A stretch of DNA of 49,964 nucleotides, filler included, from Streblomastix strix (taxonomy: Eukaryota): assembly GCA_008636045.1 (NCBI GenBank). It is 3 parts of 3 records of this genome, joined end to end, with 100 filler letters (N's around TTAATTAATTAA, not from the genome) between each part and the next. Parts side by side here need not be neighbours in the genome. Positions count along the whole stretch, not along the records: positions 33,382 to 49,964 come from SNRW01000792.1; 2 more parts are not named here. The stretch is one strand, 5' to 3'. Of this stretch, positions 26,502-49,964 are shown piece after piece. A model generated the notes under the pieces. The model searched no databases. It was not told where the DNA came from and worked only from the letters and a program-made list of their open reading frames with translations. The first letter of the stretch is position 1. Each line of letters opens with the position of its first letter. The position numbers and the translations under genes were made by a program.

Positions 26502-27190
26502 ATGGAAGAATAATAAAAATAAATAACTGATCTTGAGGATCCATCAGAAGAAGAACTATAATAAATGAAATCAGAATATGAGAAGATGAAGAAATAATAA
26601 TAAGAAATAGAATCACTATAAAAGATGTAAAAATAAATAACTTAATAAATTGATAATGAAAATATAAAATATTTTACTTATTCTAGCTAATACTTTAAGA
26701 AATAATCAATATCTCATTTAGTAACAGTAAATACAGCATAAGTTATTACAGGAGTCAAATCATTTACATAGCCTATCACAGCTAATAGAATCATTAAATT
26801 AGGTTGAACAAATAATTAAATATTATTAGCTAATGGAGATACTATTGATAAAGATAAGCTAGACTATTAACTTATTGAAGATGCAACATAATAATCAATT
26901 GCATATGGAATGTATGAACAACGAATATTGGGTACGCTAACAATTTAGAATGGTAGAGTATATATTTCACTGCAAATAACTCACTCAGATCCTAATGCAT
27001 TAACGGAATCAGGATATACAATGTTTTCTATTATTAATAATGCTATAAAACCTAAATTTACTGGAACAACTAGAAACATTCCTTTAAATGCTGTTATGTT
27101 TGCGTAAAAAGTTCTTGGATATCCGATATGCTGGAATGGAGCAATTCCTATTGATTGTTTTATTAATCCTAACGGTACAGTTTTAATAAT
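26502..27190 (+). pseudogene. Fibre-like protein: coiled-coil, tail-fibre repeat, beta-rich head, truncated
   Basis: LVTVNTAQVITGVKSFTQPITANRIIKLG*TNNQILLANG is the same module as in 33520-36849. Head region: GTLTIQNGRVYISLQI...IKPK...DCFINPNG. Confidence 0.55.
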
Positions 27191-27946
27191 TCTGAATTTT
27201 ATTTGAATAATTCTGAATTTTGCAAAGACACTTTTTCTAATTTTATGAAAACTCATTTATATAATGTTATTGTTCATCATATTACTATAACTTCTTAACT
27301 CGGATGTTTTCTCAAAAGTACCTCAGGAGCTGTGGTAAATCAACATTTAATGAAATTGATGCATTTCATAATATTTATCATAAATTTTTATAAATAAATT
27401 ACAAAATTTAAATTGTAATTTCAATATGCAGTATATAAAATAATCAAAATAAAAAAATTTTCAATATTGAGTAAGATAATTAACTTTTAAATTATAGACC
27501 CCATAAATGTTGCAATTTTTAAAAAAAATATTTATTGAACATTAATTTCATTTATTCTAATAAAAAACTATATTAATATATATATGTGAATATAAAATTT
27601 ATATTAAACTTTAAGAATATAATCAATGAAGAAAATAATTTTTTTCATTAAAAAATATAAGTGAATTTTACTTCGTTTCTCATGGGAATATTTATATCAT
27701 ATATAATTTGACATATATATTAATAGTTATTTACATTTTATTCGCAAATAGTTAAATTATAATAAATAATTATACATTTTTCAATTATCAATTTCAATAT
27801 TATTTATTTATTATCTATAAATTCTGGATTTTTGTTTTAATACTTTAAATTTATATTTAGACGATCTATTTATTTATATATATTACTCAATTAAACTTAT
27901 TTTCATTTATTTTATATATATTCATATATTATATATCATCAATTAG

Positions 27947-30900
27947 AGAAAAAAATATAAAGATGCTGTATTATAATATTCTCAAGAAAATACTGAGTTT
28001 GAATGGAAAATTCACTTCTATCTGAGCGATTGCGTGTTGCAGAGACACTTCAGTAACGCTTCAGAGATGAGAGTGAAGGAAATGTTATTATGGCTCAAAG
28101 AGAATTATAGCGTGAAAGAGATATTCAATAAGAGAGAGAATATTCACATGAGAGAGAATCAGAATATACGTGAAGAAATCAACAACTTGGTCACACAACT
28201 TAGAAATGCTCTAGAATAAAATAACTTTACAAATTAACGTTTATCACAATTTGATAATGAAAGAGAATAAAATATGAAAGATTCTACATCTAAAAAAAAG
28301 ATTAGAAGTAGAAAAGAGAAAATAAAAGAATAATCATAAGAAATAGAAAGTTAAAGTGATGATGAAGTTGAAGAAAGATTTGAAGAAATTAAAAGAAATA
28401 AGAATAAAGAAGAATTTGAGAAAAGAATTTCTGATTTATAAACTCAAATAACATAATTATAATAAAGTGCAAAATAAAAAGAGAATGATTGGAATCGTGA
28501 AAGAGATACAATTACATCATCCAAACAAGGTATTGAGAAGGAAAGAATAACATTAACAAAGCAAATTACTATTGAATAAGAAACTAAGATTCAGCTTTAA
28601 AAAGATAATTAGAGAATTGAGAAAGAAAAGAAAGATACTTTTGAATAATAATCTCGAGAAAAGGCTGAATATGAAACATCAATTGCAAAAGCAGAACTGG
28701 AAATTTAAAGTTTGACAGAATAATTAAAGCAAATCAATAATTTCAAACAGTACAATAAGAAATTAACCAATGATCTAAGAAATGCAACAGAGAAATAATC
28801 TCAATTTGAAGAAGCGACATAAACAACAATTAGAAAATTAGATAAAGATAAGAATGAATTACATGAAAGATCAAAAAAAGCGTAGAAAGATCTTTAAGAG
28901 AAAGAAACAGATATTGAAAAGAAGAAATAATAATATGATGAAGAAAGAGAGAAATTATAAGATGATAATCAAACATTATAAGTTAAGATTAGTTAATTAA
29001 CAAGAGATTAATAATAGAAAGAAAGAGATATTGCATCTAAAGCATTAGATAGAGAAAGAGAAAGAGCTTTATTATAAGCAGATTTATAATAATCAGTCTT
29101 AGAAACCAAAAGAGCAAAAGAAGAAACTGAGAATTAAAGGAGAATATCATAAGAAGAGATAAGTGAATTGAAGAAATAAATTAGTAATGAATTGGAGAAT
29201 CAAAGATAGAATTGGATGAAATAGATTAATGAAATGAAAAGTGCTTTGGAAAGAGAAGCTAATTGGAAAACAGCTGAATATGAATCAAGAGAAAAAGAAA
29301 TGATATCAAAGAGCACAACTATTATGGCATAATAATAACAAGAATAAGAATCATAAACGTTATAATATTAAGCCCAAATTGAATAAATTCAAAATTAGTT
29401 AAGAAATTAAAAGAGCAAATCGGATGCAATTAGAGAGAAATTAGAAAAGGATCATGAAAAATAAATGAAGAAAGTTAAATAATCCGCGGGAGAATAACTT
29501 ACTCGTTCAATAGTTGAGTTGAAATAAACGAATGAATAAAATATTTCAATAATTATTCAATTACGTGATCAAATACAAAATCAATTATAATAATTGCAGT
29601 AAAATATATCAAATAGATTCATTTAATAAGAAAAGGATACAAAGAATGTTATTGAATAGAAAGAAACTGGATGGCCGAAAAGATTTGCTGATAATTGTTA
29701 GAGATTAAATAATTTGGATAGAAAACATTAGATGAACAGAGAAATTAGTATGAATGAGATTAATGATAGAAAGTTAATATTTATTTATTATTATTCATTT
29801 ATTTTTACTTTATTAGAAATAGCAGACTCACCAATTAATTATCACAACTCCATTCTGAAAGAGAATAAGTTCGAATCACAGCAGAATAAATCATTAGAGA
29901 GATTCTTATACAGAAATAAGAATCTGAAATTGTATTTAATCAAAAGAGTTAATCTTCAGCTGCAGCTTTCTCATAATTGGCTTAATTAATAACTGGATTT
30001 GCTGAATGGTTCTTTAGAAGCACCCATGTTGCTAATTTACAAGCTGGTATGAATAATAAATGAAAGAAATAATAATATTAATTATTTATTATTTATTCTA
30101 ATAAATATTATCTAGGAGCTGCACTTGAATCAGCCAGTTATGCAAAAGGTAATAATGAGGAAGAAGAAGATGGTAATGAATAAGAAGAAGGAGAAGATAT
30201 TGTAGAGAATGCATAAAGAAGAAAGAAAAGAATGGGTAAATATCCAAAGAATACAATTTATCAACTTGAATAGACATTAGATAAAGATAGAGAAATATAA
30301 AGTGAAGAAAAAGATAAGAAAGAAGAAGAAGATGATGATGAAATTGATGGGAAACAAAAGAAAATAAGAAAATCAAGAAGTAAATCTCCCATAATAAAAC
30401 CAATCAAATCACCTCCAAGATCTTTCTCACCATATCCATGAGTTAATAAAGACTCATCTTAATCAATTCCAGCTTCATATGAATAATTATAGTTGTTAAA
30501 CAGAGAAGCATAAAGATGGTAAGGATTTGCTTTAGGAGGATAAAATAATGGGAAATAAGTAAGTGGAGATACAAATAATGCAGCTGAATAGATTATATAG
30601 AGAAATTGAATAGATGAATAAGCAACATCATATTTATAATAGATTGATTCACAAATGATAGAAAGAATATTCTAATTCAGATACAGATAATAATAATAAT
30701 AAATAAAATAGAGGAATTGGTTAATAGAGGAAGAGGAGGAAGAGTTAGAAAGATATCTCTTAATGGGAATCTAAATTACACTAAATTAGTCAAGTATCAA
30801 CATCACCAATTAGAACACCATCTATATAAGCTCTATTCCAATTGTCATCTTCTTCATTAACAACTGTATCTCATTTACATTCACCCATTTATTCTGTATA

Positions 30901-31755
30901 ATAAACATAATTATAATAATCTAATAATTCACCATAAATTACACCATTTGAATAAAGATTCTAACCTTAATTCAATTTTAAACAACTACAACAAAGCCAT
31001 CTTCATCATCATCATCATCATCATCATATTTATCATATGAGAAAACAGCATCTTCATTACCATATCAAAATCAAAGTATAACATCAGCATCTCCATTATA
31101 TTCTTCTATTCATTCAAATACTTAATCTAAAATATCTTCATCTTTTTCGTATACATCATCATCATCATCATCTATTATTTCTGCATTACAGTCCTTCTTC
31201 CCTCCTCATTCTCCTCCTTATTATATATCTAATTATTCATCTTCATCTATTCCATCTATTCCATCTAAATCTATAATTAATAATTAGATTAATACAACAT
31301 CTTATTCTAATAACATATTAAATCTTAATTCTACAATTTATTCATAATATGGATCAAATTTCCTAACTACTTCATACAATTCAGCCAAATATGATCATCT
31401 ATAAATATCTGTTCTTCCATCAACAACTGCCAATACTCCTCATGCATCAAAGGCCTATCTAATATCACCTTCATTATAAGTACCTCCTCTAAGTCCAGCT
31501 TATTCATTTCCTTCTTCATTCCCATTTGCTCCTGTTTCTCCTTCTTCCTCTTAATTATCTCATCCACATACTCCTCCACATATACGAATGTCTGGTGTAT
31601 AATAACAGTAACATTATATATGGAACTTCTCAGAATTAACATCTGGATACCTATCTCATAATAATTCTATCTTCAATATTTCATTACCATCTCAAACTAA
31701 TTCTCCATTTTTACCTCATTCTACATCAGCATAACATCCTAATTAATTATCTTGA
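27947..31755 (+). CDS. Host gene (partial, possibly pseudogenised at 3' end): long coiled-coil protein with Ser/Pro-rich tail, introns
   Basis: ~608-codon exon 27947-29772 is open only with TAA/TAG=Gln (E/K/Q-rich heptads). GT-AG introns at ~29773-29816 and ~30047-30115; downstream low-complexity part has frame disruptions. Confidence 0.65.
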
Positions 31756-32229
31756 TGATATTCTTCTAAAACTCAAAATTCAAATCCAAATAACTTCACT
31801 TTTTCTAAATCTCCATCATAATCATATTCTCCCTCTAAAGAATATTTAGTATTCACTTCTTCATTAACTTCTTTCTATTGTTCATCATCACCATAATTAT
31901 TACCTTCTACTTCCTTTTTTCTTCATCTTATTTGATACATAAAATAATTAAAAAAGAAAGAATGAAGAATATAGAAAGATAAAAGTTAATTTTTATGCCT
32001 TTAATGGTTGAAACAAATACTATTTTTAGTATTTCTTTTTTATCTTTATCTTCATATCATTAAATAATTTAATAAATGAATAATTATTAAATTAATATAA
32101 AGAGAGAATGATATTGATAAGAAATTTAGATAGTAAATAAATATATTAATTGAGAAGTAAGATAAATAAAAAATGAAAAGAAAACATGCGAAAGAATAAA
32201 TACATTTTTATTAAACAACTATTTAAAAG

Positions 32230-33281
32230 TCAAACAACATTAATAGTGGAGATATAAATTATCATACTGCTTTCTTCATAGACAGATAGTGATTATTATT
32301 AATTAAACCTAGATATAAAGCTTATTCTTGATCATAATCTTCTCCATTCACAATCGGTTATTATCTGTTTCGAGGATCGTAAATAATAATTGATCTTTTA
32401 AGCTTTTGGGTTAGGAAAGTCTGACAGATAGAGACCAAGATCTCTTAGCGTTTCTTTCATTGTTATTTCTCTCAATTGTGCAGGAGTGTTTCCACCAATT
32501 ATATCATGAATTGAACTTATTATATTTTAAATAAATTAATTTAATTTTTGTATTATAAATAATAATTATTAATTATTTAAATTTTATTTATATTTTTCTT
32601 ATTTCAAACTTATACAATCAGTTTTTATCCCCTTTTATCTTTCTATTCAAAACTAGTCCAAGTTCTGATGCAATTTCTGTCAAATATTTTTATTCCAAAA
32701 ATTGTTATAATTGAATTTTATTAATAATAAATTATTATTTAATATTAATTTTTATTAATATTAATCAATTAAATGAATTGTATTAATATATGCATCATCA
32801 AATATCCTTACTGGATCAATATCATTAATTATATCTCCTACTCTATCTAGCTATTCTTAATTATTTATTTGTATTTCTATTTCTATTTATTTCTATTTAA
32901 ATTTCTATCTTTCAATTGAATTTTTTGTATTATCATTTTCTATTTAAGTTTAAATAATTCTCCTTCTTTTTCTTTTCTTATTTTATTCTTAAAATTCATC
33001 ATCAGTTTAATAATCTTCATCAATTTCTACATCTTCACTCAAATTTTATTTCTCTGCATTGTATTCTTCACTATTAATTTAATTGTCATCTTCACTGCAA
33101 TTTAATTTTTCTTTATCAATCATATTTTCTTTCATTCTTTTTTATTTATTCTTCCCAATTTTTTTCTATATTTTTCTTTTTCTTTTCTTATTGCCCTTAT
33201 TCACAGATCTTTTTCTCTTCAGTTTCTTCATATTTTAATCACTCAATTGATTTTCTTATTCTTTATCATTTAACTCAATTT
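32230..33281 (-). pseudogene. Fragment of an intron-containing host gene, K/E-rich, unknown product
   Basis: Minus-strand frames DVEIDEDYQTDDEFQEQNKKRKRR, TEIASELGLVLNRKDKRG and ISSIHDIIGGNTPAQLREITMKETLRDLGLYLSDFPNP, separated by AT-rich introns. Confidence 0.4.
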
Positions 33282-33381: not shown

Positions 33382-33487
33382 ATAAAAAATAAGAAAAATA
33401 ACAAGCATTTTAGATTTGGGAGAGATAACAAGCAAAATTATTGGTGCTGTATCCAAAGGTTTAATGATTGTGCTAAATAAAATTTGA
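33382..33487 (+). CDS. 3' end of a small amphipathic protein (partial)
   Basis: ...KKITSILDLGEITSKIIGAVSKGLMIVLNKI*, followed by TGAAACCGTTA as at other viral gene ends. Confidence 0.4.
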
Positions 33488-33519
33488 AACCGTTAATTAA
33501 TGATTTTTATTTTTATAAA

Positions 33520-36500
33520 ATGGACGGAGATTTACATATGTTTGATGTTGTTTTAAATCATGATTAAGTGCTTTATGGCTCAAGTAAGTATAACACCATT
33601 GGCTTAATCAGTGAGGTAAAAAATATTGAAAATTTAATTAATATAATTAATGAAGCACCTGAAACTTATAATCGTGAAGAAATTGATGAAATGCTAGATA
33701 AAAAATTAAATATATCTGATTAAATTGATGCATACATCAAATAAGAAGATGATGCACTGCTGCTGTTGAAGGCTGATAAATCAGAGCTCATTGATGCATA
33801 TTCGAAAACTGAAGATGATGCACTACTCGACGACAAATTAAATATTACTGATTAAATTGATGCATATAATAAATCTGAAGTCGATGCACTACTCGACGAC
33901 AAATTAAATATTAATGACTTAATCGATGCTTATAGTAAGTAAGAAGATGATGCGTTGCTGTTATTGAATGCTGATAAAATTGAGCTAATTGATGTATATT
34001 CGAAAACTGAAGTCGAAGCACTACTCGACGACAAATTAAATATTACTGACTAAATCGATGCATACAATAAAACTGAAGCCGATGCTCTGCTATTATTGAA
34101 GGCTGATAAATCAGAGCTCATTGATGCATATTCGAAGACTGAAGCCGATGCTCTACTCGATGAAAAATTGAATAAATCCGATTAAATTGATGCATATAAT
34201 AAAATTGAGGTCGATGCTCTACTCGATGAAAAATTAAATATTTCTGATTAAATCGATGCATACAATAAAACTGAAACCGATGCCCTACTCGATGAAAAAT
34301 TAAAATATTTCTGATTAAATCGATGCATACAATAAAACTGAAGCAGATGCTCTACTCGATGAAAAATTAAATATATCCGATTAAATTGATGCATGTAATA
34401 AAATAAGAAGATGATACGCAGCTGTTGTTGAAGGCTGATAAATCAGAGCTCATTGATGCTTATACGAAAATTGAAGTCGATGCCCTACTCGATGAAAAAT
34501 TAAATATTACTGACTAAATCGATGCTTATAGTAAATAAGAAGATGATGCTCTGTTGTTGTTGATGGCTGATAAAACAGAATTAGCGGATTATGTTGATTT
34601 AGCTTCTACTCAGACGATAACAGGCCAAAAATAATTCGGAATAATTAGTGTTTCAAGCATATCGAAATAAAATAAAAAATGATGCTTCTATTCTTCTTGC
34701 TGGCGGTGGTGATATGCTAGTAAGTTCATTGATATCATAGCCATAACTATAAGAAGTTCGAAATATTGCATCAGGCAAATCAAAAGGATATGTATTTATA
34801 ACAACGGATGAGATGAAAACTTGGATGGAAGATTAAGAAAACGTTACAAAATTAGCAATTTGTGATAATTTATATATAGTTGATAAATAAGTCATGGACT
34901 ATTGGTGGGATGGCTCTAGTCTTCCAGCACTAGAAACAGAACTGCCAGATATGAGCAACGTCATGACCATTCTTGGTGCTGCTACAGGAGGCGACAATGC
35001 AATAACAGATTTATCATTTGATGGAAATACACTAATACCCGCGAAAAATAGTTCTTTTATAACGACTAACTATGATGAAACTATTACAGGTTAAAAGACG
35101 TTTTATACAACTATTCACTCTGTCGGAATATCTGTATAAAATTACGATAATAATTCTGTTGTTTGTGCTGATGGTGGTGTTAAGGCCATATAGGACATAA
35201 ATGCAAGCGTCGATTTTTCAAATTATTATAATAAATCATAAACATATTCATTAACTGAAACAGATTAAAAATTAAATCTAAAATTGAATATTTCCGATTA
35301 AATAGATGCTTATACGAAGACATAAGATGATGCGTTGCTGTTGTTGAAGGCTGACAAAACATAATTAATTAATGCATACAATAAAACAGAAGTCGATGAC
35401 CTACTCGACGACAAATTAAACGTAAGCGATTAAATTGATGCATACACAAAAGGAGAAGCTGATAATCTACTAAATAATAAAGCTAATTCTGGGGTTTCAT
35501 ACATTAAAGGAGAAGATGACGCTTTGCTATTATTGAAGGCAGACAAAACATAATTGATTGATGTATACACTAAAGGAGAAGATGACGCTTTGCTGTTGTT
35601 GAAGGCTGACAAAACATAATTGATTGATGCATATACAAAAGGCGAAACCAATAATCTTTTAAATAATAAAGCCGATTCTGGGATTTCATACACAAAAGGA
35701 GAAGCCGATAATCTGCTCAATAGTAAAGCCAATTCAGGAGTTTCATACACTTAGGGAGAAGATGACGCTTTGCTGTTGTTGAAGGCTGACAAAACATAAT
35801 TAATCGATTCATATAAAAAAGGCGAAACCAATAATCTTTTAAATAATAAAGCCGATTCGGGAGTTTCATATTCCAAATAAGAAGACGATGCGTTGCTGCT
35901 GTTGAAAGCAAATCAATCAACAACTTATACCAAAATAGAAACTGATTAATTAATATCACAAATTGAAGTTGGAGATGTTGATTTAAGCGGTTGTATGACC
36001 TTGGGCACTTCATAGACAATAACAGCAAACAAAACATTCAATAATGCTTGTAGATTTGTAAGTTCTATCGATGGAATGGCAACAATTACAGGCACATAGT
36101 TTGTTAAATCTGGCGCTGACGATATTGTTGTATAACTTGGAGCTGGTGGCACTAAGCAAATTTCTGAATTCGCTGGTGCTCCAGCTGATTTATCAAACTA
36201 TTACACAAAAACATAAACATATTCAAAAACAGAAACTGATAATAAATATGTAAGATTGGAAGGCTCCATTTAATAAACAATAACAGGAAGATTAAAATAT
36301 GTTAGCCCATTTGGTGAGACATATGATGAAACATAAGACCCTGTAGCTAACACTTATTTAACTTAGTCAGAAGTTGATGCAAAACTAACAAATTACGTCA
36401 ATACAGTTAATAATTAAGAAATTAATGGCACAAAAACATTCAATGCTAATGTTAATGCGACAGGATTTGTGAAAACAGGCAAAGATGATACATCGGTTTT

Positions 36501-36849
36501 ATTGGCTGGTGGTGGCGACCGATTATTATCTTCATTTGGAGGGATTAAAGACTTAACATCGTCGGCATTTTCTGGTATGAATAGTGCAGTAATATAATAT
36601 AAATTAATAAGAATTGGAAATCTTTGTATATTTTCATTACTCGCTAATGTACGAAATTACAATATGGGAACATTTAACACTGACTACTTAGTTTAGGATG
36701 ATGTTGCTGTTATAACATATATACCATTTCCGAATCACACTTTTGATAAAGGCGGTTATGTATCGATTACTCATTCAACTGGACTTATTACCTGTAAATC
36801 AACAACTAATACATATATATAATGTGTATCTGCTACAAAGTTTAAATGA
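33520..36849 (+). pseudogene. Long fibre-like protein (~1100 aa): 22-aa and 19-aa shaft repeats, four tail-fibre modules, C-terminal head; frameshifts in A-runs
   Basis: Shaft repeats IDAYxKxExDALLDxKLNIxDQ / EDDALLLLKADKxEL and GVSYTKGEADNLLNNKANS. Modules QTITGQKQF..SILLAGGG and QEINGTKTFNANVNATGFVKTGKDDTSVLLAGGG. Head KLIRIGNLCIFSL...GYVSITHSTG. Confidence 0.75.
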
Positions 36850-36896
36850 AAACCTTGAAATTGTTTGGATTAATTTTTTATTTTTATTGAATATAA

Positions 36897-38475
36897 ATGT
36901 TGAATGTTTATATTGATGAAAGATTATTAGACGCAGCTGGTTTATCGGACTTCCCAGAATTATACGCATATATCAAAGAACGTTATCCTAAACTCATTGG
37001 TGAATTACCGCAACCTGTTCCAATTGGGGACCAAACTCTGTAATAGCAAGTGAAAAATAATGACGATATTATCTACGCATCAAACGAAGTATTCGAGCCA
37101 CCAGTGCCTAATGCAATAACGAAATTGGATTTGAGTTCGTAATTAGAGCGAAATAGTTTTTTAGCATCTAGTGGTTCAGATCCAACATTAATCGTTTATG
37201 GCGATAGAATCACATTGACAGCGTCATACGCAACAACAGGTGTATTTCCGAACGGATATTTATTTAAAAGCTATCCACAAGAAGCGAGACCAAAACAGGG
37301 TGATTAAGTGATTGCATTAGTTGGAACCGACGCATCTAATACATATAATATATTTTGTTATATCGATTAAGGGGGGCTATTTATTATAAGCAATAGATGG
37401 CTACCGTCAAATACTGCTCTCGTGCTTAATATCACATATTATAAAAATTATGAATCATCGAAAAAATTAAATTATGATGCCAATAATGATGGAAAAATAG
37501 ACATTATGGACACGTGGAATGTAAATGGAAAAGGCTAATTTGAAGCGTAATCGTATGTCTATGAAACTGTGAAAAATTAAACAAATTTAATCGAGGCGGG
37601 AGTGTAAGGGCTAAATAGAACTAATTATTTGAACAGTGAAATAAAACTAGTGGATGAATTAGCGATATATAAAGCAGATAGAGCAGCATATTTTAATAAA
37701 GACGATCCATTTATCACTTATAGCTTTGGGGCAAAATTGGCACAATTAGGCGCCAATTATGAAGCATAATAGACTGTATATAAATTATTTTCGACAATCA
37801 GCAAAAAAGTTCTACCGCCTAATACGAAATATATGCCTATTCATGTAGAATAATAAGAATTTTCCGCTATGTGTTTGTTCAAGGATATGTATGTTAAGTC
37901 GTCAGCTGTATAGGTGGCCGTTAGTGGATAATTAAATATGCTAGATTGTGAATTTCAAGGAACTTATATACTTGATAATTATACAAATGAATCAGCATCA
38001 AATGAAGCATTACCTGAAGATGTAGAATCTCACATCGACGAAGTAATAATAAACATGAAAAATAATTAGGTTCATCACCACAACCACAATATACGATAAA
38101 TAATGTTTATAATCAGTTTATGATAAATGATTTTTCCCCTCATCAGCATATAATACGTTCTATATCATTGATGATGTCACTTGCAGAGTATGCGTATTCA
38201 ATCTATATTTCGAATCTAAAGGTTTAGATGGGAGAAAGTAAGAGGTTGGTCGTATTCCTGATTCAATATTACCTGCAGATGGTAAAAGTTTAGGCTTCGC
38301 TGCGGCTGTATATAGAACAAAGGGCGGAAGATAGAATAATTTTTCAGTGAATTATTTTATTGTAAATTCATAATTTAAAATGCTATACTTTTAAATATCT
38401 GAACCATAAGAGTCAATACCAACGGATTCAGCTGATGTTTATAAATATTGTGCTAGTGGAATGTATTATTTGTGA
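36897..38475 (+). pseudogene. Protein with tandem fibre-head-like beta domains and a DxNxDGxIDxxD (dockerin/EF-hand-like) motif; frameshifted near 38080-38140
   Basis: TLIVYGDRITLTASY...YPQEARPK...FCYIDQGG, YDANNDGKIDIMD, RVCVFNLYF...VGRIPDSILP...SGMYYL*. Confidence 0.6.
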
Positions 38476-38500
38476 GAAACAGCACCTGCAACATCAACGA

Positions 38501-38626
38501 AAAACGATATTTTGGCATGCATAAATGGTGTGGTTTATGAATGACATTTAGCTGCACCGAGTGCATCGAGTGCATCGAGTCAAAAACTTTCATCAAAAAT
38601 TGCTGCCAGCCTGCCATTCTGCCAGA
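38501..38626 (-). repeat. Intergenic repeat, variant B, reverse orientation
   Basis: GCACCGAGT-GCATCGAGT-GCATCGAGTCAAAAAC...GCTGCCAG-CCTGCCAT-TCTGCCAG. Confidence 0.9.
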
Positions 38627-38707
38627 AATGAGAAAAATAAATAAAAAAATCATTTATTCAAATCCAAAATAATACACATAAAATTTTATTTTTATTATAA
38701 ATAAACG

Positions 38708-39022
38708 ATGGCTGTAGGTATCTTTTCAAAAATCAAATAGTTAGTTTAAAAGGTATGGAAGGGTCTTTAATGGGTGAATGATAACGTTTATAAACCGTTC
38801 ATAAAACCATTTGCAAAGCCGATACTTGGAGCACTAGGTCCCATGGGCTAAACAATAGGCAAAGGTTTAGATGTTGCTAGCTCATTTCTTGATTATTGCT
38901 ATGGTGCAGATAAAAATGGTTAATTTAGATAAGATTTTGAAACATTGAGAAATGATGAATATTTAAGATAAAAATTACCAATTGATATACAGAGTCGAAG
39001 AATACAATTATAGAACCAATGA
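38708..39022 (+). CDS. 104-aa protein with N-terminal amphipathic helix (adenovirus pVI-like membrane-active candidate)
   Basis: Intact ORF MAVGIFSKIKQLVQKVWKGLQWVNDNVYKP...LGALGPMGQTIGKGLDVAS, directly upstream of the MCP. Confidence 0.7.
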
Positions 39023-39076
39023 AAAATATAAACATTAACGTTTGAGCATTACTTATTTTTTATTTTTTCTAAATTA

Positions 39077-39203
39077 TTGGCCAGTTGTCCAGTTGGCCAC
39101 AGCTTTTTATAAAAGTTTTTGACTCGGAACACTCGGAACACTCGGAACACCTAAAAGTCATTCACTAACTGCATCAATTATCCGCGCCAAAATATCGCTT
39201 TTT
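39077..39203 (+). repeat. Intergenic repeat, variant A, forward orientation
   Basis: Near-identical core to 1164 and 1412. Confidence 0.9.
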
Positions 39204-39279
39204 CATAAATGATTTTTCCAATTATCAACGTTTTTATATTTCATTAAGTATTTATTTAACTATTTCATTTTTTTATTGA

Positions 39280-41002
39280 ATGTAAAAGATGAATAGATTT
39301 CTAATGAAAGCCACACATTTACAACAAGCAGGGACCATTGAAGAAACATTATTAGGTACTGCTGTCGTTCCATTCACTATTGACGGAGAACTTCATTATT
39401 CAATCAAGGAAATCAAACCAGAATCTTAAATGCCAGCGTTATTTGATAAGGAGATTATTATAAGTTTATCAGACACAGACCACGACATCACATAGATATA
39501 AAATTCGTTCTTGTCGGTAGTGCTAACGGCTAATATCTAACTCGATGATAAATTTGATAAAATTGATGAATCATATAAAGACGGATTGGTTCTATTTGTT
39601 GGTCTCAAATCGGGTTCAAATCTTATTAGAGAATACACCATCTATCATAGAGGTAAAACCATCTATGGAAGCTTATAGAATGACGCAACAACTGAATCAT
39701 TCATTTATAACACAATCAAGCCGAAAAGTGAGAAAAATAATAGAAAACATATACATTTTTTATACGAGAACATTCATAATTTTGATACGTCAGCGTGTGG
39801 AACATATATAAGTATGCGAGAGATTGAAGAGCTAATAGGAAATCAGACAGCGGTTCCTTATACAATTCCAATACGTTTTAGAGTCAGTATTCCACTTGAT
39901 GACCTCTTGATATTCTCTGCATTCACTGATTACCCTAATGGCCTATTTGGTGATTTAAAAATAAAATTCAAAATTAATCTTCATGCATTTGTTTTCTGTC
40001 AAGTGAATCCAATAATTTCAATGGCTAAATATTATATAATGAATAAAGATGAATTATTGGGTAGTAGTCAGTAGAAGCTAATGGATAGTGATTTGATGTT
40101 CAGAAATTGGAGTCTGACATTCTAATACACTAAATAATTTACATAATTGGGATGCATTGCTGATTTGATTACAGGACTACATGCGGAACCACTTACTGAA
40201 TCAGGACTGAAGAACTTAATATGCGACATCAAACCCGTTACCATAAGCATAAAAAAATTATTTCATTACTGAGGTTGCTGCACACATGGCAGGTTATAAA
40301 GCTACTGATGCATGCCTTAATCGAGTCCGTTAATTCTACAGCTAACTTCCATTTGTTGTTCCCGCTCAACATGTGGAAGCATGACCATTTCCAACGAGTG
40401 CCGCACTAACGGGAATACGAACATCTTAAAATATTCCTCTATCTCACGTAACCGACTTCTTCCGTCTATTTCTTAAAGATGCAAGAGCAACAACTTGCTT
40501 AGATAATCCTTGCTATTAGAACATGTTTTTAATTACCTGTGGCCGCAATTTCCCAGATATGCCTATGAATACTCTTGATCAATAATTCTTCCAATTATAA
40601 CTCAATGCATCAAATCTTGACCTGTTATTCGAAGCCACTGATGAATTTGAAGATGCTTTAACAACACCAAGAAATACAGCAACCCGAAGACTGAACCCTC
40701 ATACAGATTTAACAAGCTTTTTGATAACTCTTTAATGTGAAAGGAACAGCAATGGAGCACTAACTTTTGATGGATTAGACACTCAGAACTAAAACACATC
40801 TGTCGAACTCAGAGAAGCACCAATATATTAAGGAGCAACAGATTCATATTATAATGTAGATACCAGCGGAAAGAGACCGCCACCTCCGATTTTATGCACT
40901 GTTCATGATACATTTTTGTTGTTCTCACCCGCTGCGGGCGGAAGCTGCATATATGATACAAACCATTCATTTGATGAAGTTATCGGACCACATAGTGCAT
41001 GA
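39280..41002 (+). pseudogene. Major capsid protein (double jelly-roll, ~570 aa); one frameshift (~40255) and one in-frame TGA (~40382)
   Basis: Beta-rich sequence: DITQIQNSFLSVVL, SNLIREYTIYHRGKTI, FRVSIPLDDL..F..FTDYPNGLFGDLKIKFKI, CGRNFP, TFDGLDTQNQNTSVEL. Size and position beside penton-like gene and ATPase support the call. Confidence 0.75.
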
Positions 41003-41135
41003 AATAATTGAACCGTTATTTGATAACATTTTTATTTTTTTATTTATATATAACTAACATCTAAACATTAATATAGTTAATTAAATAGGTCATTGGTTAT
41101 ATTTCTAATAACTATTTTTATTTATTTTATAATAA

Positions 41136-41531
41136 ATGGCTTCAAATATGACATCAGCATAAAACTTAAAATATTACACTTTGACATAAGATGATGGAAT
41201 TGTAATCGGAGAAAACAGATAAAATGGAGTTGGTTTTGCATTACCATATGCGTTTGTAAATTCAGATAATTAAAGAAAAATAATATTCTGCTAATGTCAT
41301 TGTTCAAACTAAGGCACTAACGAGGACATAAGCGTTCATAGTTCAATGGTTCAAGAAGAATAATATTTCGATTAATTTCTAGGCTATTGTAATGAATAAC
41401 GAGTCTATAAACCTTTCATCCAATATTCGCACAACAGATATTTATATGTATCGTTCCGTTAAAATTAAGAATTATTGGATATATATTAAAATTAACTAAA
41501 ATTTGTTCTGGAGTTGATGCTAGAATATTGA
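41136..41531 (+). CDS. 131-aa minimal penton/minor-capsid-like protein
   Basis: Intact ORF ...GFALPYAFVNS...KIIFCQC...ISVHSSMV...YLYVSFRQNQELLDIYQNQLKFVLELMLEY*. The C-terminus fits the single jelly-roll penton pattern; directly follows the MCP. Confidence 0.55.
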
Positions 41532-41536
41532 GAACG

Positions 41537-41561
41537 TTGCTGGCTCAAAAATGAGCTAGCA
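41537..41561. terminator. Stem-loop just after the penton-like gene stop
   Basis: TGCTGGCTCA-AAAA-TGAGCTAGCA. Confidence 0.35.
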
Positions 41562-41657
41562 CATTAACAGTTTTATTTTTGTTTAAATCATCGGGCCACG
41601 CTACCAACTAAAAACACCCACCCCTAGAAAGTTGATGGGCTAAATTAGCCGGACAAG

Positions 41658-41994
41658 GAAAAATAAATTAGACAATAGAATTGAAAATTTACGTTGGGTA
41701 AATAACTCGGAAAATCAGAAAAATAAGGGTAATTACAGGTAAAATATTATATATAACATTATAAATGAATTATCTGATGACGCAATAGTGGTAAATGATT
41801 ATGGAAAATATTAATTTGAATTTATTTGTTTCGATAACAATAAATTTTATTTCTATAACGGATTATAATATCGTGAATTGCATATAAATGAGCATTAATC
41901 TGGCGCGTTATTTGTCTATGCTTTTGATACAGACAAGAAATAACGGCTCATTTACCTTAACAAATTTAAGAAATTATATGATATTCAAATTTGA
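41658..41994 (+). pseudogene. 5'-truncated HNH endonuclease
   Basis: NKLDNRIENLRWVNNSENQKNK...ELSDDAIVVNDYGKYQFE...FYFYNGLQYREL...YLNKFKKLY; same family as 25939. Confidence 0.8.
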
Positions 41995-42028
41995 ACAACG
42001 TTATTTATTTTATTTTTGCAGAAATAAA

Positions 42029-42388
42029 ATGGAAAGAATATTATTTGACAACAGAAAAAACAATTAATTTACTTCAAAATTATAAATAGAAACGGATGAA
42101 TAGGATGAAATGCCACTCGAGGAGGGGGTCGAAGGTTAGACTAACGGACATAAATATTTTGAGACTTTAAACGATTTCAAATAATTTATTTCCCAAAATA
42201 AATAATAATTATCTAAACTATCAACGTAAAAACTAAATAAATTATATAAATTGGAAGGTTATAAGTTATCAAAAATAGAAGGTCAAATATGTATAAGAAC
42301 TTGTGCGAAAGACTAATTGAATAAGATTGAGTATAAATTAGACTAGTTTTTGGATGTTCTGAACCATTTGGTTTAAGCGCTGAAATGA
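42029..42388 (+). CDS. 119-aa uncharacterised viral protein
   Basis: Intact ORF ...KYFETLNDFKQFISQN...LSTQKLNKLYKLEGYKLSKIEGQICI... with C-terminal coiled coil. Confidence 0.65.
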
Positions 42389-42476
42389 ATGACTTTTAGC
42401 TGCACCGAGTGCATCGAGTGCATCGAGTAAAATAGGTTCTATGAAAAATGCCAGTCGATCCGCCAAATAGTCGAAA
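42386..42476 (-). repeat. Intergenic repeat, variant B, reverse orientation, partly degenerate
   Basis: TGAATGACTTTTAGCTGCACCGAGTGCATCGAGTGCATCGAGT. Confidence 0.85.
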
Positions 42477-42500
42477 ACGTTGATATTGAACATATGCGTT

Positions 42501-43288
42501 TCAGATTATTTTTACAACTGTTCCACTCATTTCATATTAGACCACTAATGCTTATTATTTGGTTAATCGCACATACTCATACCATATTGTTTCTTTATCT
42601 GATGGTATAGAAGATTAATAAAAAATTAATTAAATTTTAATCTGTTAAATGAACCGAAGAACCATAATGAATCAAGATTTGATTTAATCGCAGCATCTAA
42701 ACCAATAATGTCCTATAAACAAAGAAAGTAAGTTATTCTGGGCTATCGGTTCTTAAATAATTTTTTAAATTGTGGATTATTTTTATTTTTAAATATACTC
42801 ATTGCATCGTCAAATAAAACAATCGTTTGGGGAAATTTGACATCAAAATTACCTCCTCCGTTAGCTCCAAATACATTGGTTAATATATCATTTTATGACT
42901 TTTCAGTTAGTTCTTTTTATAATTATTTTTCTTAAATTTCATCATACGCTTATTTGCATTCAATCAAATCATTTAGCACTTAATCCGCTTCGGCATATGG
43001 AATAATTTTTGTAGGGATTTTAATTAAGTCCTTCATCTTTTTATAAATGGTATCATTATTTGAGTCGCTGACGTATATGAATAAGGTATAACAATGTTTT
43101 TTTAACTGACTTAACTTTGTTAACTCTTTGAAGACATTATACATCTTGCCACTGCCACGCTAACCTATCAATAAATTTACAGAGTTATATGTAAAATTTA
43201 ACTCTTTATGAATAATAGTTTAAATTTCGTGCTTATTCACTTTTATTTCTTTTAACATGTTATCAACTTTTTATTTTAAACTCGCCAT
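42501..43288 (-). pseudogene. A32/FtsK-family genome packaging ATPase; one frameshift near 42625
   Basis: Walker A LLIGQRGSGKM, Walker B TIVLFDDA, arginine finger/sensor KNRQPRITYFLCLQ, IKSNLDSLWFF. Confidence 0.88.
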
Positions 43289-43327
43289 TTTTATTATATA
43301 AAACTTTTTTTATCGATAAGAAATAGA

Positions 43328-44376
43328 ATGTCAGAAATGCTCGATTTAAAACAAATTGAAAAAGATCCAAGATAAGAATTTGAAGTAGAAAAAAGCGAAG
43401 GTGGTAGTGGTGCAGGTGGGATGATGGACATTGATGGAATGGAGGATGATTACAATTATTATGAATCATAAGCATCAAGATAGGACAGGATGAAATCACG
43501 AGCAAAACCGTTTGATAGGCTACCGTTCCATCCCAGTATGATTCAGAGAACAAGAAAGCATGCAGGCCCATAATTTAGAGAAGAGGCGGGGATGTCCTTG
43601 CTACACTCGTTGGTTATTTGAATAGAGATATAAAGAAAATTAATAGGTTATCATCAGCCGTCAGTGCTCAAAAATATATATAAGATAAGCATTTAGACAA
43701 ACGATTTAGTGTATTGGAATAGGACTTAGATGATAATGTAGCCATTCCTGATAATGTGGTTGTGTTTGATAAGAAAAAGAACGCAATTTATTCAGTCGAT
43801 GGTTATACAACAACAGTAGGATTTGGCGACCCATAACATTAACATAAAAGAAATTGGAAGAAAAAATATTATTCGGATGTTAATGATTTAGAACGAGCTG
43901 CATTGGCAGCCAAATTAAAACAATAAGGAATAAAAGGCGGCCTTTACATGAAATGGTTATCAATGACTAAGCCGCATAAGGTAAGAGAAATAAAGAATTA
44001 TAGTTTCAGAGCATTTACCGTCAATGCTAAAAAAGTCATAGACGCTAATGGAGGCGCATAATTGCCAATGGCAACCAAACAATAAATAATGGCATCTGTT
44101 TGGAATTCAGTTCTTATTAGTCCTGCTGTAGAAATATTAGAAATATAAGACGGAAAAATAGACATATATAACAGAAGTAATAAAACTAAAATTTAGTAAG
44201 GATAATACGAATATTTACCACTTGCTAAAAGATTGTATAAGAAAGAATTGGCTGCCGTTATTACTCAACTATATTAAGCTGAAGATGTCGATGCTAGAAT
44301 TAAGGAAGCACTTGGATAAGCTATGTAATATTATGGTCAAATGTTAGCATAGATAGCAATAAATAGGTGGTTATGA
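43328..44376 (+). pseudogene. Uncharacterised ~350-aa viral protein (possible core protein), one frameshift
   Basis: MSEMLDLKQ...SEGGSGAGGMM...SAQKYIQDKHL..FSVLEQDLDDN..PDNVVVFD...IYSVDGY; divergent from the ATPase with only 39 bp between starts. Confidence 0.6.
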
Positions 44377-44450
44377 ATTAGCTAAATACAAATTCATTTA
44401 AACCAAACAATGATTTAGCATAAATTTATTTTTAATTATTTTTCTCACTT

Positions 44451-44604
44451 CTGGCAGAATGGCAGGCTGGCAGCAGTTTTTGATGAAAGTTTCTGACCCG
44501 ATGCACTCGATGCACTCGGTGTAGTCAAAAGTCATTCATAAACAACTCCATTTACGCGTGCCAAAATATTGCTTTTTATAAAAGTTTTTGACTCGATGCA
44601 CTCA
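44451..44604 (+). repeat. Intergenic repeat, variant B, forward orientation, with partial second unit
   Basis: CTGGCAGA-ATGGCAGG-CTGGCAGC...GACCCGATGC-ACTCGATGC-ACTCGGTG...ACGCGTGCCAAAA. Confidence 0.9.
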
Positions 44605-44652
44605 ATAATCCAATTTATTTATGTAATTATTATTTATTTTTATTATAAATAA

Positions 44653-47600
44653 ATGACAGATAAATAGGGGTATGACTCGTAAAGACGATCAACGCCTCCG
44701 ATTGTGCATCCAATTACACCACAAATTCAAGCACTACCAGAATTATAACCGCTTATTTAATCACCTAGATAAACGCAGTCATAAATGACGTAAATGTAGG
44801 ACTATATTACATAAATGCAAATGCGCAACTATCAACCATCGCCAGAATTATAAATGGAACATCAGCAATAGTAATTGATGCAAATGTAGAATTATATTAC
44901 GTAAATGCAAACATATAATTACCAGCAAGCCCCTTCGGGCCCAGCCGAAGGCTCGCCTAAACTGCAACCCGAATAAGGCGGAGCTCAAGATGTGCGGCGG
45001 ATTATCAAGTGAATTTAAGGCACCAAAAACTAACACCAGAAATAATATGAGAGTTAATGACTTTATGTGACCCTGAAATTTAATAGAAAATAAACATTAA
45101 CGAATTAAGGTCGTAATTTTCATTAATTTTAGATAAAATTCATTTAGAAAAGGGTAGAAACAATAGGGATATAGTTCGAAATGCCATATTATAATCAAGA
45201 CCATTTGCATAACGGGTAAGGTAAGATACTTAAATAGGCCTTCAAAATGAACAAATAATAGGTAAAGTTTATGCTAAATAATTTTTTCAAGAAAAAAATA
45301 ATACGTAGAATATGTGCACTTAAGACGAATAGAGCAAACAACACAATTAATAATGGGAGCAAATGATGGAAGATTAGCGAGAGAGACATGTAGATCTATT
45401 AAAAGAAATTAAAGAATAAAAAATAAACCTTAAATAAAAATAAAATGTTGATGTGTTTAAAAATGTTAGAGATGAAATATAGGAGTTTAATGAAGAAAAT
45501 GAGGCAAGAATTATAGGCGAATTAACGCCCTGCAGAATACGATTATGTTATGTGAGCCACAACTCGAATAAGAATATGAAAGAAGAATTAATTTTGAGCG
45601 AAAATATATGTAAAATTAACACGTAAAATACGACCCATTTTATGTTCATACCATCAGCCCTACAAAAGAATATTACAAAAATGATTTGAAAACGATTGAA
45701 GATCTCGATGCTTACATAGATGAAATATATTAACGAGAAAAAAAATTTGCATTCAAAATTGCATTTGATTTTGGAGTGATTATTGAACGAGTTGATGGCT
45801 AGGAAAACGATTAATAAATAGCATATAAAATTAATCGTCCCCTTGAAGCTAGGACAGAGATGAGAGCTCCAACAACCATACGCACCCAAATCGACCTTGT
45901 CGATTATAAACGATTCATTAGAAACCACATTATTCAAATGTAAGAGAAAAACATTATGGACACAAAAGAGAAAATAGTTGGTATATTTTCAATAATGATT
46001 TATGTGTTTAGGCTTCCACACGCAGGCGCTGGAGGTGGTCGAACAATACCATCATTAAAGAAGCACATTATGAGGCGAGAGATTCGATATGTTGACCCTG
46101 AGAAAAATAATTAAAATTTATGTTTATTTCTAGCATATTCTTTTACTATGATGCCAGTCATTAAGGCTGATGTTGCTGCTGACGGTTCCGCTATTCCTGC
46201 AAAGCGTTATAAGGAATATTCACGTATTGCTGAAGCAAAACGATTATTTTAAAGAATCTATGGCAAGAAAATAGATGAAAATTATAATGGGTTTAATTTT
46301 GCAACAGAAGCGGATTAATTTATTTAAAATGAAAATTTAAATATTAATGTGATCGCTTATGAAGAAACAACGGCAACCTCAACGGCAGCACCAGCCAATT
46401 CAGGCAGTTATTACCTATGGAAGCAATATAGAAGTAACGAACAGAACGAATAAACTAAAGATTTTAATGTTCTTTTAATAACCGACACAATCATCGAACT
46501 ACAAACGGCTCACGTTTTTTTATATTAATGATGTTGAGGCGCTAACTGGTTTAAAATATTGCCCTATTTGTGGTGTGTAGGCTTATAAGACCAGAGATTC
46601 AAATTTGTAGTCAAAACTAAAAAGACACATATAAAAATGTTAAAAAAATGAGGGAAAGATAATAAAGAAAGTATATTTAGAAAAATTTCCAAGGCCTTAT
46701 GTTCCTTACATATTAAATAATGTTAGCTATAAGTATCTACTGGCACATGGTCGAGAGGATGAATTTAAACCTACTAAATATTATGTAACATATGATATTG
46801 AAACTGTAGAAAGAATCTTAAATGAAACATTCGGTGATAATTCAACATAAATTTCAATTCTTGAACCCCTTTCGATTGCAAGCACAATAAAAACAAAAAA
46901 AGGAAGTCATTAATGGTTCAAATAACGGTTCCGTTGATTAAATTTTTTCGATTTATTTTGACATTCGAACCCCTAACTTTATTAATGTTTGGATTAAATA
47001 GTTATTTAAGGAAGCCCGAAAAGTTATTGATTCAAACAAATATGAAGATGAGACGATACCATAGCATTATGAGGTTCCAGTAATTGGGTTCAATTCTTCA
47101 AAGTTCGATGTGGCTCTAATTCTTAAAAATTTATAGAGCGATGAGTGGCAAATCATTAAATATCTTGGTAGTGGTTCAAACGTTAAATAAATTATTGTTA
47201 AGCATAACATATCAGGAATAAAATTGATGTTCATTGATGCGATGATTTATTCTACAAAAATGAAATTAAAATAATTCATAAAAGATTTCACACCAAAAAG
47301 ACAGCAACAACGGAAAAATCAGAAATTCCAACCAAATTAAAATTTCCATATGAATTCATCAACTATGACAATTACTATGAAATATTTAATAATCCTTAAC
47401 CATTTCCTATTGAAGCATTTAGAAACTCAATTAAAAATAAAAATATAAGTCAAGAAAAATATTTAAATTATTTATCCATAGCTTTGTAATTTTCGAATAG
47501 GTGGGATTACCTCCGACACTATAACCTCTAAGATACTCGCTTAATGATTGAGCCACTTGATTACTTAATTGATATGTTCTTTAATTATAAAATTGATATG

Positions 47601-49594
47601 CTGCAGTTTATGTCGATGTCAGCATGCGCTAATGCTATCAAATATGCTCTTGCTTATTGGGACTTCAAACTAGATTAAGACTGCACGCCAAAAGATGATT
47701 ATGCTTCTTTTATTTTGACATAAAATTATTGGAACATCAAAGTTTAAAATTATCTAGAATAAGATAAAAAAAGAAATAGAGACACAAGCAATAATATTAA
47801 AGAATCAGATTGTGCGTTCTATTGAAAATTATTTCTATCAACAGGATGCCACATATGCAAGGCACGATTCACAAGCAAAAATCTTCCAACATTAGATAGA
47901 ATCAACAACAACATGGGCCATTCTGCAGATAACGTAAAACCTTGCTGCTTATTTTGTAATAAATTTAAGTCAAATAAAGACGAAAATTTAACAAGATTAG
48001 TAATACAATTAAAAAATTTCTGTTTGTTGAAGTCGCTACCTATGACAATAACCGGTGAAGAAATATATTAAATTTTACGTTCTGGTATCACTGGTGGATT
48101 ATCATAAGTCATGCATCGCTATAATGTTGCAGGTGAAACTAAAATAAATAAATTAAAATTTATTAATGGAAAGGTCATTAGTCAGGACACAGACCACACA
48201 ATGACCCATCTTTTGACTCTAGATTTCAACTGTTAATATCCCAGCGTTATGAGCTCAGAGCCGCATAAGTTCATCAAATATACAGGTAATAAATTATACA
48301 TGGCGGGATAAATATTGGATAAAATTACTGATAAATAAACAGCAAGAAATTTAATTTATAATCCAAATCGATTTAATGACGTTGAAGGAATGCCGCTATT
48401 TATCGTAGCTGTTAAAGGACACATCGACGAATAGCATATAAATGATTTTATTAATTTTCTTCCGATATTGAGAAACATTGACATAATGACCGATGAAAAA
48501 CATTAGGGTCATACATGTATAACCTATTACTGAAAAATAACATGTTGCACGACAAAAATGAACGAAAATTAACAAATTTATCATCGACGCATGGATAGTT
48601 CATGTCGTTCAATAATTATTATTTGTGGCTTCTCATTGATGATTTTCATTTCATTATTGACGATATTTAATGTCTTATAACGTTCTCAAAGCACGATAGA
48701 TTTAATCCATTCGTTAAGGAATTTATGAATCAAAGAATATAGGCAATAAATGAAAAAAATGATGGAAAAAAATAAATCTATAAATAAGCTATGAACTTAA
48801 TCTATGGAACTGATGGGATGAATTAAGAAAAATATTAACAAACGAAATTGTTGAGCTCTGATAGGACATGGTTGTCTCATCTCTAAGGTTCATTCGTTAA
48901 TGATTAACAATTAACAGATGATTTATATGCTGTATAATTGAATGCTGAGAGCTGCAACTGCAACACCTGCCTACATTCTGCTTATTTCGTGGTAGATAAT
49001 AGCAAATACTGGTATATAAATTTTATCTATAATTTTATGGCCAAAGCTTTCGATATGAACAGGATGCACTATATTTGTGGTGATATTGATTCGATGACAT
49101 GGGCCATTAGCGGCAACCCAGAAGATGATTACAGACAGAAATTTAAAAATATCATCAATGACTAAAAATTTTTCGATGAAAATTACCCATTATTCTTCGG
49201 TTAGTATAAACAATTATTGGGAGTCAGTTATGAGGCAGAAGGAACTGCTTGCATTGCTCTAGCTCCAAAAATTCGTTACATTTATAATCCTCTACCTAAT
49301 GAGAATGAAAAGGATTATAATTATTGTTTGAAAGGAATAATATAAAAATAAAATGTTCATTTAAACGATGAAGCATTTAAATAATCATTGAATGGAGAAT
49401 AAATATAAGCTCAAAATATTATTCTTGGTTAAAGAAATAAATAAATGTCAAAAATATAAATAAATAAAGTTGGTTTATCATCCATTCATAATTAAATGGT
49501 TGTGCTTGAAAATCAATGTTGTGCTCCGTTCCTTTACATTAACGGATAGCAATTGAGTTCAGATAATTATATAATTATTAATGATGAGCACTGA
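44653..49594 (+). pseudogene. Protein-primed DNA polymerase B with long N-terminal extension (Gln/Pro-rich, terminal-protein/OTU-like region) and embedded HNH module; several frameshifts and TGA
   Basis: ExoI VTYDIET, ExoII IGFNSSKFD, KFPYE, ExoIII YLRHYNLQD, SGITGGLSQVMHR, motif A LDFNCQYPSVM, motif B KQAMNLIYG, motif C ICGDIDSM, IALAPK. Confidence 0.93.
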
Positions 49595-49611
49595 TGATAG
49601 GCACTAAAAAT

Positions 49612-49726
49612 AAGCGTTATTTTGGCACGCGTAAATGGATTGGTTAGTGAATTACTTTTAGCTGCACCGAGTGCATCGAGTCAAAAACTTTCATCAAAAA
49701 CTGCTGCCAGCCTGCCATTCTGCCAG
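49612..49726 (-). repeat. Intergenic repeat, variant B, reverse orientation (two 9-mer units)
   Basis: TTTTGGCACGCGTAAATGG...GCACCGAGTGCATCGAGTCAAAAAC...GCTGCCAGCCTGCCATTCTGCCAG. Confidence 0.9.
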
Positions 49727-49799
49727 ATAGTCGAAACATTATTTGAATCATTAACATCTCCATTAATGCCTTTAATTGTTTTATTTTTGCAAGAAATAA

Positions 49800-49964
49800 A
49801 TGTAAAACGAAAATAAATTGTATGAGGATATCCTTAAGACTTTTGCAGGTGAATAATATCAAAGGGAAGAATATGAATTTGAAGTGTAATAAGATATCGA
49901 TGATAAAGCATATAAAGTTCATTATAAAATGAGTCTATCAGAGTTCATAAAAAATATCTTTAAA
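49800..49964 (+). CDS. 5' end of next viral gene (partial, unknown)
   Basis: MQNENKLYEDILKTFAGEQYQREEYEFEV..., preceded by the T-rich/ATAAA leader seen at other viral starts. Confidence 0.5.

Follow-up and report, generated by a model that had tools for sequence, protein, structure and literature searches.

An internal repeat between the gene blocks of a Maverick-Polinton-like element in Streblomastix strix

Streblomastix strix (NCBI GenBank assembly GCA_008636045.1) carries a multi-copy, Maverick-Polinton-like viral element in which an intergenic repeat of about 125 bp recurs five times in alternating orientation, bracketing blocks of viral genes with inverted pairs. Is this repeat a junction at which the blocks invert or are exchanged, or a fixed element that acts from their borders? 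The stretch of DNA analysed, called the window hereafter, is 49,964 nucleotides long and consists of three contigs joined by N-spacers (1-16591, 16692-33281 and 33382-49964); the repeat was studied on the third. We conclude that the repeat is a real, family-level feature, that other copies of the virus mostly keep the layout seen in the window, and that routine cassette inversion is not supported.

The repeat and the element that carries it

A Maverick-Polinton-like element present in multiple copies is represented on the third contig by one decayed copy, which extends past both contig ends and whose open reading frames (ORFs) open when read in NCBI code 6. The ORF at 39289 has 239 homologues, and 119 of the 120 listed are named Streblomastix strix, the remaining one being the window's own protein. 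Elements of Maverick-Polinton type using code 6 were previously published for S. strix, according to the accessible part of PMC10120064, and in the available text of bioRxiv 10.64898/2026.06.19.733378 the Metamonada elements are still ungrouped. The contig holds two of the genes expected of a Maverick-Polinton, namely a protein-primed family B polymerase (pPolB), with a match just under the cut-off, and a double jelly-roll major capsid protein (MCP). The predicted fold of an intact homologue, 93% identical to the 39289 product (pLDDT 92), matches the capsids of PBCV-1, Sputnik and mavirus at E about 1e-13 (Atlas 0.96-0.97), and this modelled structure confirms the MCP assignment. The first-pass annotation had labelled the bracketed blocks as pVI-like; MCP, penton, HNH and a small ORF; ATPase with an unknown gene; and pPolB. 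Apart from MCP, ATPase is supported through its homologues, pPolB and HNH fall just under Pfam cut-offs, and pVI is a lead only.

The five copies which that annotation had placed at 38501, 39077, 42386, 44451 and 49612 were recovered, on the same strands, by a profile search and by blastn. Profile hits lay at 38629-38505, 42477-42353 and 49729-49614 on the minus strand and at 39074-39198 and 44448-44572 on the plus strand; their E-values (1e-28 to 1e-38) serve location only, as the profile was made from the same five copies. Between repeat copies blastn gave E 1e-6 to 1e-55, and a spaced core pattern matched four times in the window as against 0 in 100 shuffles.

Each module runs from a head of 8-mers through a T-rich spacer and 9-mers to AAAAGTCATTCA and a CG(C/T)GCCAAAA tail. 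The anatomy first described (three 8-mers, T-rich spacer, 9-mers, AAAAGTCATTCA, tail) holds in full at 39077 and 44451, and nearly so at 38501, where AAAAGTCATTCA and the tail motif have one change each. It does not hold at 49612, with two 9-mers, or at 42386, where the head is different and without a clean 3x8 array, the tail is degraded, and the stop codon of a 119-aa ORF falls inside the core. Three heads (A, B and C) and two 9-mer types (A and B) occur in the window; a third 9-mer type turned up among the loose ends from runs X2 and X3, its hand translation matching a peptide in gene model P0184. Adjacent copies are 71, 59, 58 and 87% identical in order, the last value being that of the polymerase pair, and copies within one element are 58-89% alike. 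Whereas the bases in between vary, the period and the core motifs (TGGC; CAC-C every 9 bp) are retained. The consensus of an E2F-like site is matched exactly in one of the five copies.

Of the intergenic gaps, the four longest (138-276 bp) each hold a repeat, and a further one follows pPolB; five short gaps (33-47 bp) have none, nor does the 133-bp gap downstream of MCP. Strict alternation, which the first-pass annotation had stressed, is true of the five copies; because it would arise by chance with probability 2/32 (1/16), alternation within one virus copy is weak evidence by itself. A partial tandem copy (44571-44604) and three copies in the same orientation on the first contig had been overlooked. 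Read depth over the repeats showed no large excess, and the HNH bins lay far below their neighbours; depth is not copy number and was not used as evidence.

Layout in other virus copies

Conservation of the layout was assessed by three indirect routes: run contigs, public gene models and locus tags. Scans of viral contigs and genome contigs returned no related loci, and two of the three loci from a metagenome scan (L001 and L003) were chance pattern matches without a blastn match to the window. In six cases a repeat is bridged on both flanks: all six (four gene models and two run contigs), which do not cover the orientation of the polymerase block, keep the order and orientation of the window. 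Gene models P0184 and P0242 run from a gene of unassigned function at 36897 (the 36897 gene) through a tail-first repeat into pVI, and P0191 and P0418 from pVI through a head-first repeat into MCP, each scoring above 200/200 shuffles. Record 12 of run X3 spans 42271-42934 across the 42386 repeat with 111 differences, and the 44451 site holds a B-type repeat in one X1 contig, for which two joints with the same depth (832.7) were taken together as a single contig. Three further gene-model linkers were checked and no repeat was detected in them. Downstream of pVI, the repeat is head-first in 6 of the 7 gene models that reach it.

Public gene models were mapped to the window in sets of 321 and then 144 proteins, of which 27 and 13 matched more than one feature. 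Of the 33 fused models with pVI, 24 lead on to MCP without a change of strand and 3 to a head-first repeat, while 2 contain the upstream partner only, in window order; one skips MCP and three break the order. Locus tags, matched by eye, placed MCP and ATPase on 10 shared contigs (adjacent on 7, two apart on 3), and pVI and MCP next to each other on both contigs that they share. Pairwise identities of the modules, whose comparison across copies had been proposed as a check, co-vary between MCP and ATPase (rho 0.88, 11 copies) and between pVI and MCP (rho 0.69, 24 copies), with a within-MCP control of 0.85; the sequence pairs behind these values are not independent. The discordant copy among the 24 is P0255, with a pVI 84% like P0108 and an MCP 89-91% like another group. 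Together, these results indicate that the modules are mostly co-inherited.

Run contigs were aligned to the element in two alignments of four runs each (five runs overall, from three studies). Repeats were touched by 7 of 15 and 4 of 15 listed joints and also by 4 of 12 and 8 of 10 of the rows with letters between, and each of these cases is compatible with a different subtype standing at an unchanged site in an unchanged orientation. More than one repeat subtype was found among copies at four of the five sites, and by our own reading both B and C heads or spacers are found with 9-mer A as well as with 9-mer B (the 42386 copy of the window, L002, P0171, P0174, P0177, P0183, P0191, P0278 and P0418). 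Such mixed combinations are a sign of recombination among repeats, which would make the repeats recombinant mosaics of head, spacer, 9-mer array and tail. An A-type repeat before MCP, seen in runs of three studies at the 44541-39188 joints, contains 20-23 letters found in neither window copy and is therefore an old variant rather than an amplification artefact or a fresh crossover. Exchange of modules, one of the roles first proposed, is thus partly supported, by the mosaic repeats and by the one discordant pVI/MCP pair in 24 copies.

Several observations weigh against a conserved layout. The joints listed were a small share in one alignment and a limited one in the other (15 of 699 and 15 of 50), and most repeat joints have one flank, fitting equally well deletion or circle junctions between direct copies (for example 44541-39188, 39162-44599 and 42476-38628). 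Gene-model fusions are biased toward same-strand neighbours, and six models in which the fibre gene or the 36897 gene is fused to MCP with pVI left out are uninformative on the orientation of pVI. Record 11 of X3 runs from MCP to ATPase without an aligned repeat, so that the most divergent subfamilies may lack it, and the metagenome locus L002 carries the repeat outside any recognised module. The order is broken in 3 of the 33 pVI-containing models (P0176, P0181 and P0171). These odd models make up 3 of 68 pVI-matching proteins, as against an internal strand switch in 2 of 258 MCP proteins, so that the strand-break rate is higher near repeats; a further MCP strand switch, the third, was found at E 0.036. 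However, pVI models often finish in a spurious last exon and hence probe downstream DNA more.

Roles considered for the repeat

We favour, at about an even chance, the explanation that the repeat is an hr-like array of protein-binding sites (after the homologous regions, hrs, of baculoviruses), placed at block borders as an enhancer or boundary, kept in position and reshuffled by conversion among integrated copies. The repeat stands at fixed borders where gene blocks of this endogenous Polinton-like virus, present in multiple copies, adjoin, and its 8-bp and 9-bp arrays and inverted TGGC-type tail would be putative binding sites for one or two proteins, a suggestion drawn from the persistence of period and core while the intervening bases vary. 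One copy is placed between convergent 3' ends, and none accompanies the divergent starts of ATPase and the 43328 gene; the repeat would therefore act at a distance or mark the block borders rather than serve as a core promoter. A directional core promoter was rejected separately, since there is no orientation in which the repeat would face sense genes at every one of the five sites, as was a minus-strand ORF at 37998-38522, with its start inside the 38501 repeat, as a promoter target, homologous gene models using the plus strand. Integrated copies would act as donors, non-crossover recombination mixing heads, spacers, 9-mers and tails with the gene order unchanged, and the alternation would be an inherited layout, perhaps retained since two neighbours in inverted orientation are unable to delete the one block that they enclose.

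The iteron-like or hr-like role that had been put forward fits fixed intergenic sites, short direct-repeat arrays with a conserved period and core, and the lack of both a target-site duplication (TSD) and an RNA family (no Rfam match at E up to 1 in 38300-49964 or in L002). Its origin part is doubtful, because protein-primed polymerases initiate at genome ends. Gene order proved largely invariant among copies, an outcome that the first-pass annotation had counted against its proposal if combined with random placement, yet the positions and orientations of the repeat are not random.

Were the repeats instead recombination sites that invert, exchange or excise blocks, with an invertible pVI block, which we regard as unlikely, model P0176 would be one of their products: it runs from pVI into the antisense end of the 36897 gene (82% over 50 aa), as inversion of the pVI block between the 38501 and 39077 repeats would give, and P0181 and P0171 break the order too. 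The hybrid repeats attest recombination inside the element, P0255 is discordant, and some joints go back or skip between direct repeat copies; the 44541-39188 joints, however, represent diverged copies and not fresh crossovers. For the three odd models, either rare inversions or fold-backs from amplification may be the cause. Some single contigs contain identical genes more than once, one contig in mirror order; by the part of PMC1855051 available, more than 85% of chimeras from multiple displacement amplification are inversions, and a reference to 'single-cell metagenomics' in the accessible text of PMC10120064 leads us to infer that the gene models derive from amplified DNA. Among the 472 fetched proteins there is no fusion of pVI, MCP or the 36897 gene with the 43328 gene or the polymerase block, the latter two not having been used as queries. 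Neighbouring repeats other than the polymerase pair are only 58-71% alike, those around the capsid and ATPase blocks 58-59%, and no recombinase family was matched among the 29 ORFs scanned, though one may lie outside the contig, from which the element ends are missing. Routine inversion is not supported because all six two-flank cases and 24 of 33 models follow the layout, the modules are co-inherited, the repeats are poorly alike and no recombinase was seen. A stronger version, in which the pVI block inverts between 38501 and 39077 while exchange or excision at the repeats affects the capsid, ATPase and polymerase blocks among hundreds of copies of a quasi-segmented virus, is a long shot.

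It is rather improbable that the repeat is a mobile element resembling a MITE (a miniature transposable element with inverted repeats), or one dispersed by the host, which settled in the only places that the virus tolerates and is now neutral and homogenised by conversion. The repeat ends do have a 7-8 bp imperfect inverted symmetry, but similarity fades into the flanks without sharp ends, so that the sharp terminal inverted repeats of a MITE are lacking, and no TSD of common length was found at six copies (the best matches were 4-6 bp, A/T-rich and at varying offsets). L002 and the tandem copies on the first contig are in keeping with dispersal: beyond the repeat, L002 has no match to the viral genes of the window or to the 472 proteins, and its repeat lies between inverted arms. 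Its 3' flank nevertheless resembles that of the viral copy before MCP (P0191), and sites and orientation are kept in other virus copies. The two arms of L002, of 270 bp (257-522 and 986-1250), are 78% identical, and each has an ORF start.

We would give no better prospects to terminal repeats, relic or working, of a once-segmented genome now fused (bidnavirus- or Vesanto-like), or to internal origins. Two blocks, 3.4 and 5.3 kb long, have repeats placed head-out/tail-in around them; Vesanto segments of 3.3-5.8 kb with similar terminal repeats are described in the available part of PMC8363768; the polymerase pair is 87% identical, and tandem repeats lie at a possible element end on the first contig. 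A single repeat is, however, common to two neighbouring blocks on one contig, which gives alternate blocks opposite end polarity, so that they cannot all be segments, and paired segment ends were rejected on this ground. The repeats of the capsid block are poorly alike (59%), and blocks are linked on contigs across subfamilies. A hairpin origin was also discarded, as no consistent fold was found (z-scores from -2.4 to +0.5, one of seven below -2).

Neighbouring features, known systems and meaning

The features of the element and the additional repeats of the first contig are collected in the table.

Table. Repeat copies and genes in the window
Feature	Coordinates	Strand	Remarks
Fibre-like repetitive gene	33520..36849	+	frameshifted here; weak PF18338 match under cut-off
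36897 gene, function unassigned	36897..38475	+	frameshifted here
Repeat, head A / 9-mer A	38500..38629	-	tail 24-34 bp past stop of 36897 gene; head about 80 bp before pVI-like start
104-aa amphipathic protein, pVI-like (lead only)	38708..39022	+	all 24 homologues carry the name S. strix; Atlas score 0.80 for adenovirus pre-protein VI
Repeat, head B / 9-mer B	39074..39198	+	between pVI-like gene and MCP
MCP, double jelly-roll	39289..41002	+	frameshifted here
Small beta-rich ORF, candidate penton label only	41136..41517	+	frameshifted
HNH endonuclease fragment	41551..41994	+	PF13392 E 5e-5, 23.2 bits vs cut-off 24.8
119-aa ORF	42029..42388	+	3' end overlaps 42386 repeat
Repeat, head C / 9-mer A	42353..42477	-	between convergent 3' ends; tail degraded inside 119-aa ORF
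P-loop ATPase, likely packaging ATPase	42527..43288	-	43 homologues (35 named S. strix)
43328 gene, in pieces, function unassigned	43328..44376	+	divergent from ATPase; 39 bp between starts, no repeat
Repeat, head A / 9-mer A	44448..44572	+	ahead of 44653 ORF and pPolB
Partial tandem repeat copy, B-like spacer + A 9-mer	44571..44604	+	skipped by one run contig (joint 44564-44616)
119-aa Gln-rich ORF	44653..45012	+	
pPolB, gene in pieces	45057..49594	+	PF03175 E 9e-6, 25.3 bits vs cut-off 25.8
Repeat, head A, two 9-mers	49614..49729	-	about 20 bp past pPolB stop
Two full B-type repeats, 248-bp spacing, and one partial	1161-1283, 1411-1531, 1547-1573	+	first contig

The fibre-like gene is built of 66-bp and 57-bp tandem units, which run-contig joints skip or repeat. 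A Pfam scan of the candidate penton ORF gave no match. The HNH fragment may be an optional insert, as one diverged run contig passes from MCP to ATPase without it. Two homologues of the ATPase match Pfam PF05707 above the cut-off, other ATPase families being matched too, and the Pfam scan gave no match to the A32 family. Relatives of the capsid (33-43% identical) and ATPase (37-49%) were found in metagenome assemblies (P0325-P0344 and P0131-P0162), all on contigs of 1-6 kb. No rve-type integrase was found in the third contig.

The repeats in 1-1600 of the first contig come after an ORF at 3-722, which may be integrase-like by its motif and which has no Pfam or PDB support, and one at 772-1038, presumably AT-hook-like by its motif and without a match in the Pfam scan. 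This region may be the end of another copy of the same virus family, its repeats possibly forming a subterminal array. Further along, ORF pieces at 6967-8421 resemble a retroelement with a putative reverse transcriptase, to judge by a YLDD motif. Homologous minus-strand ORFs at 2835-3566 and at 17640-18536 on the second contig share a 131-bp DNA repeat (79%), and the latter ORF adjoins a second, distinct Polinton-like element on that contig, whose pPolB pieces are about 40-49% identical to those of the third. There, an inverted pair of 171-200 bp (20151-20321 and 20732-20902; 78% complementary, 410 bp apart, gene-free between) separates the polymerase block from a region that may be penton-like by its motif; the pair could be a counterpart of the internal repeat or the meeting point of two termini.

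Among known systems, baculovirus hrs are the closest in manner of working. As described in the accessible part of PMC2830988, they are related repeats at several intergenic sites, some of them reversed and some with positions conserved by given genes, and are reported enhancers and origins; related repeats at several intergenic sites, with positions partly conserved, are also what we found. The hr units are imperfect palindromes of about 30 bp in circular genomes of the 100-kb scale, whereas the S. strix repeat consists of five parts in fixed arrangement, its 8- and 9-mers being direct repeats, and occurs in mosaic copies within a pPolB element of roughly 20 kb; for want of a palindromic unit we do not file it as an hr. 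In invertible segments and shufflons, inverted repeats likewise surround gene blocks; here, unlike there, no recombinase was seen, the repeats are poorly matched and a second orientation appears only in three suspect models. The late promoter motif of mavirus is short and tied to gene starts, whereas the S. strix repeat measures 125 bp, lies in either orientation, sits once between convergent ends and is absent at a divergent start pair. By the available text of bioRxiv 10.1101/068312, a trans factor activates the integrated virus by way of this shared cis motif. In bidnaviruses and Drosophila Vesanto, which are pPolB viruses too, similar inverted repeats enclose the gene blocks (PMC8363768, same part), each segment having its own terminal-repeat pair, in contrast to the one repeat between two blocks of continuous DNA in S. 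strix. Other Maverick-Polintons and Metamonada viruses have pPolB, double jelly-roll MCP, HNH, a fibre-like gene and probably the ATPase in common with the element, and the accessible descriptions mention terminal repeats and no internal repeat between gene blocks. The accessible, non-subscription literature on Polintons, including the available portions of PMC10120064, PMC12220804 and bioRxiv 10.64898/2026.06.19.733378, likewise held no internal repeat of this kind; the supplementary maps of PMC10120064 may show one.

Mosaic repeat subtypes such as those of S. strix are a record of recombination among endogenous copies. If blocks did invert or reassort at the repeat, it would link the unsegmented Polintons with segmented pPolB viruses, and active junctions would mean a virus reassorting inside one host genome. 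To our knowledge, little is known of the cis-acting control of Maverick-Polintons beyond their terminal repeats, and an internal element conserved at several sites in a Metamonada lineage that is still ungrouped is a target for finding the factor that wakes integrated viruses.

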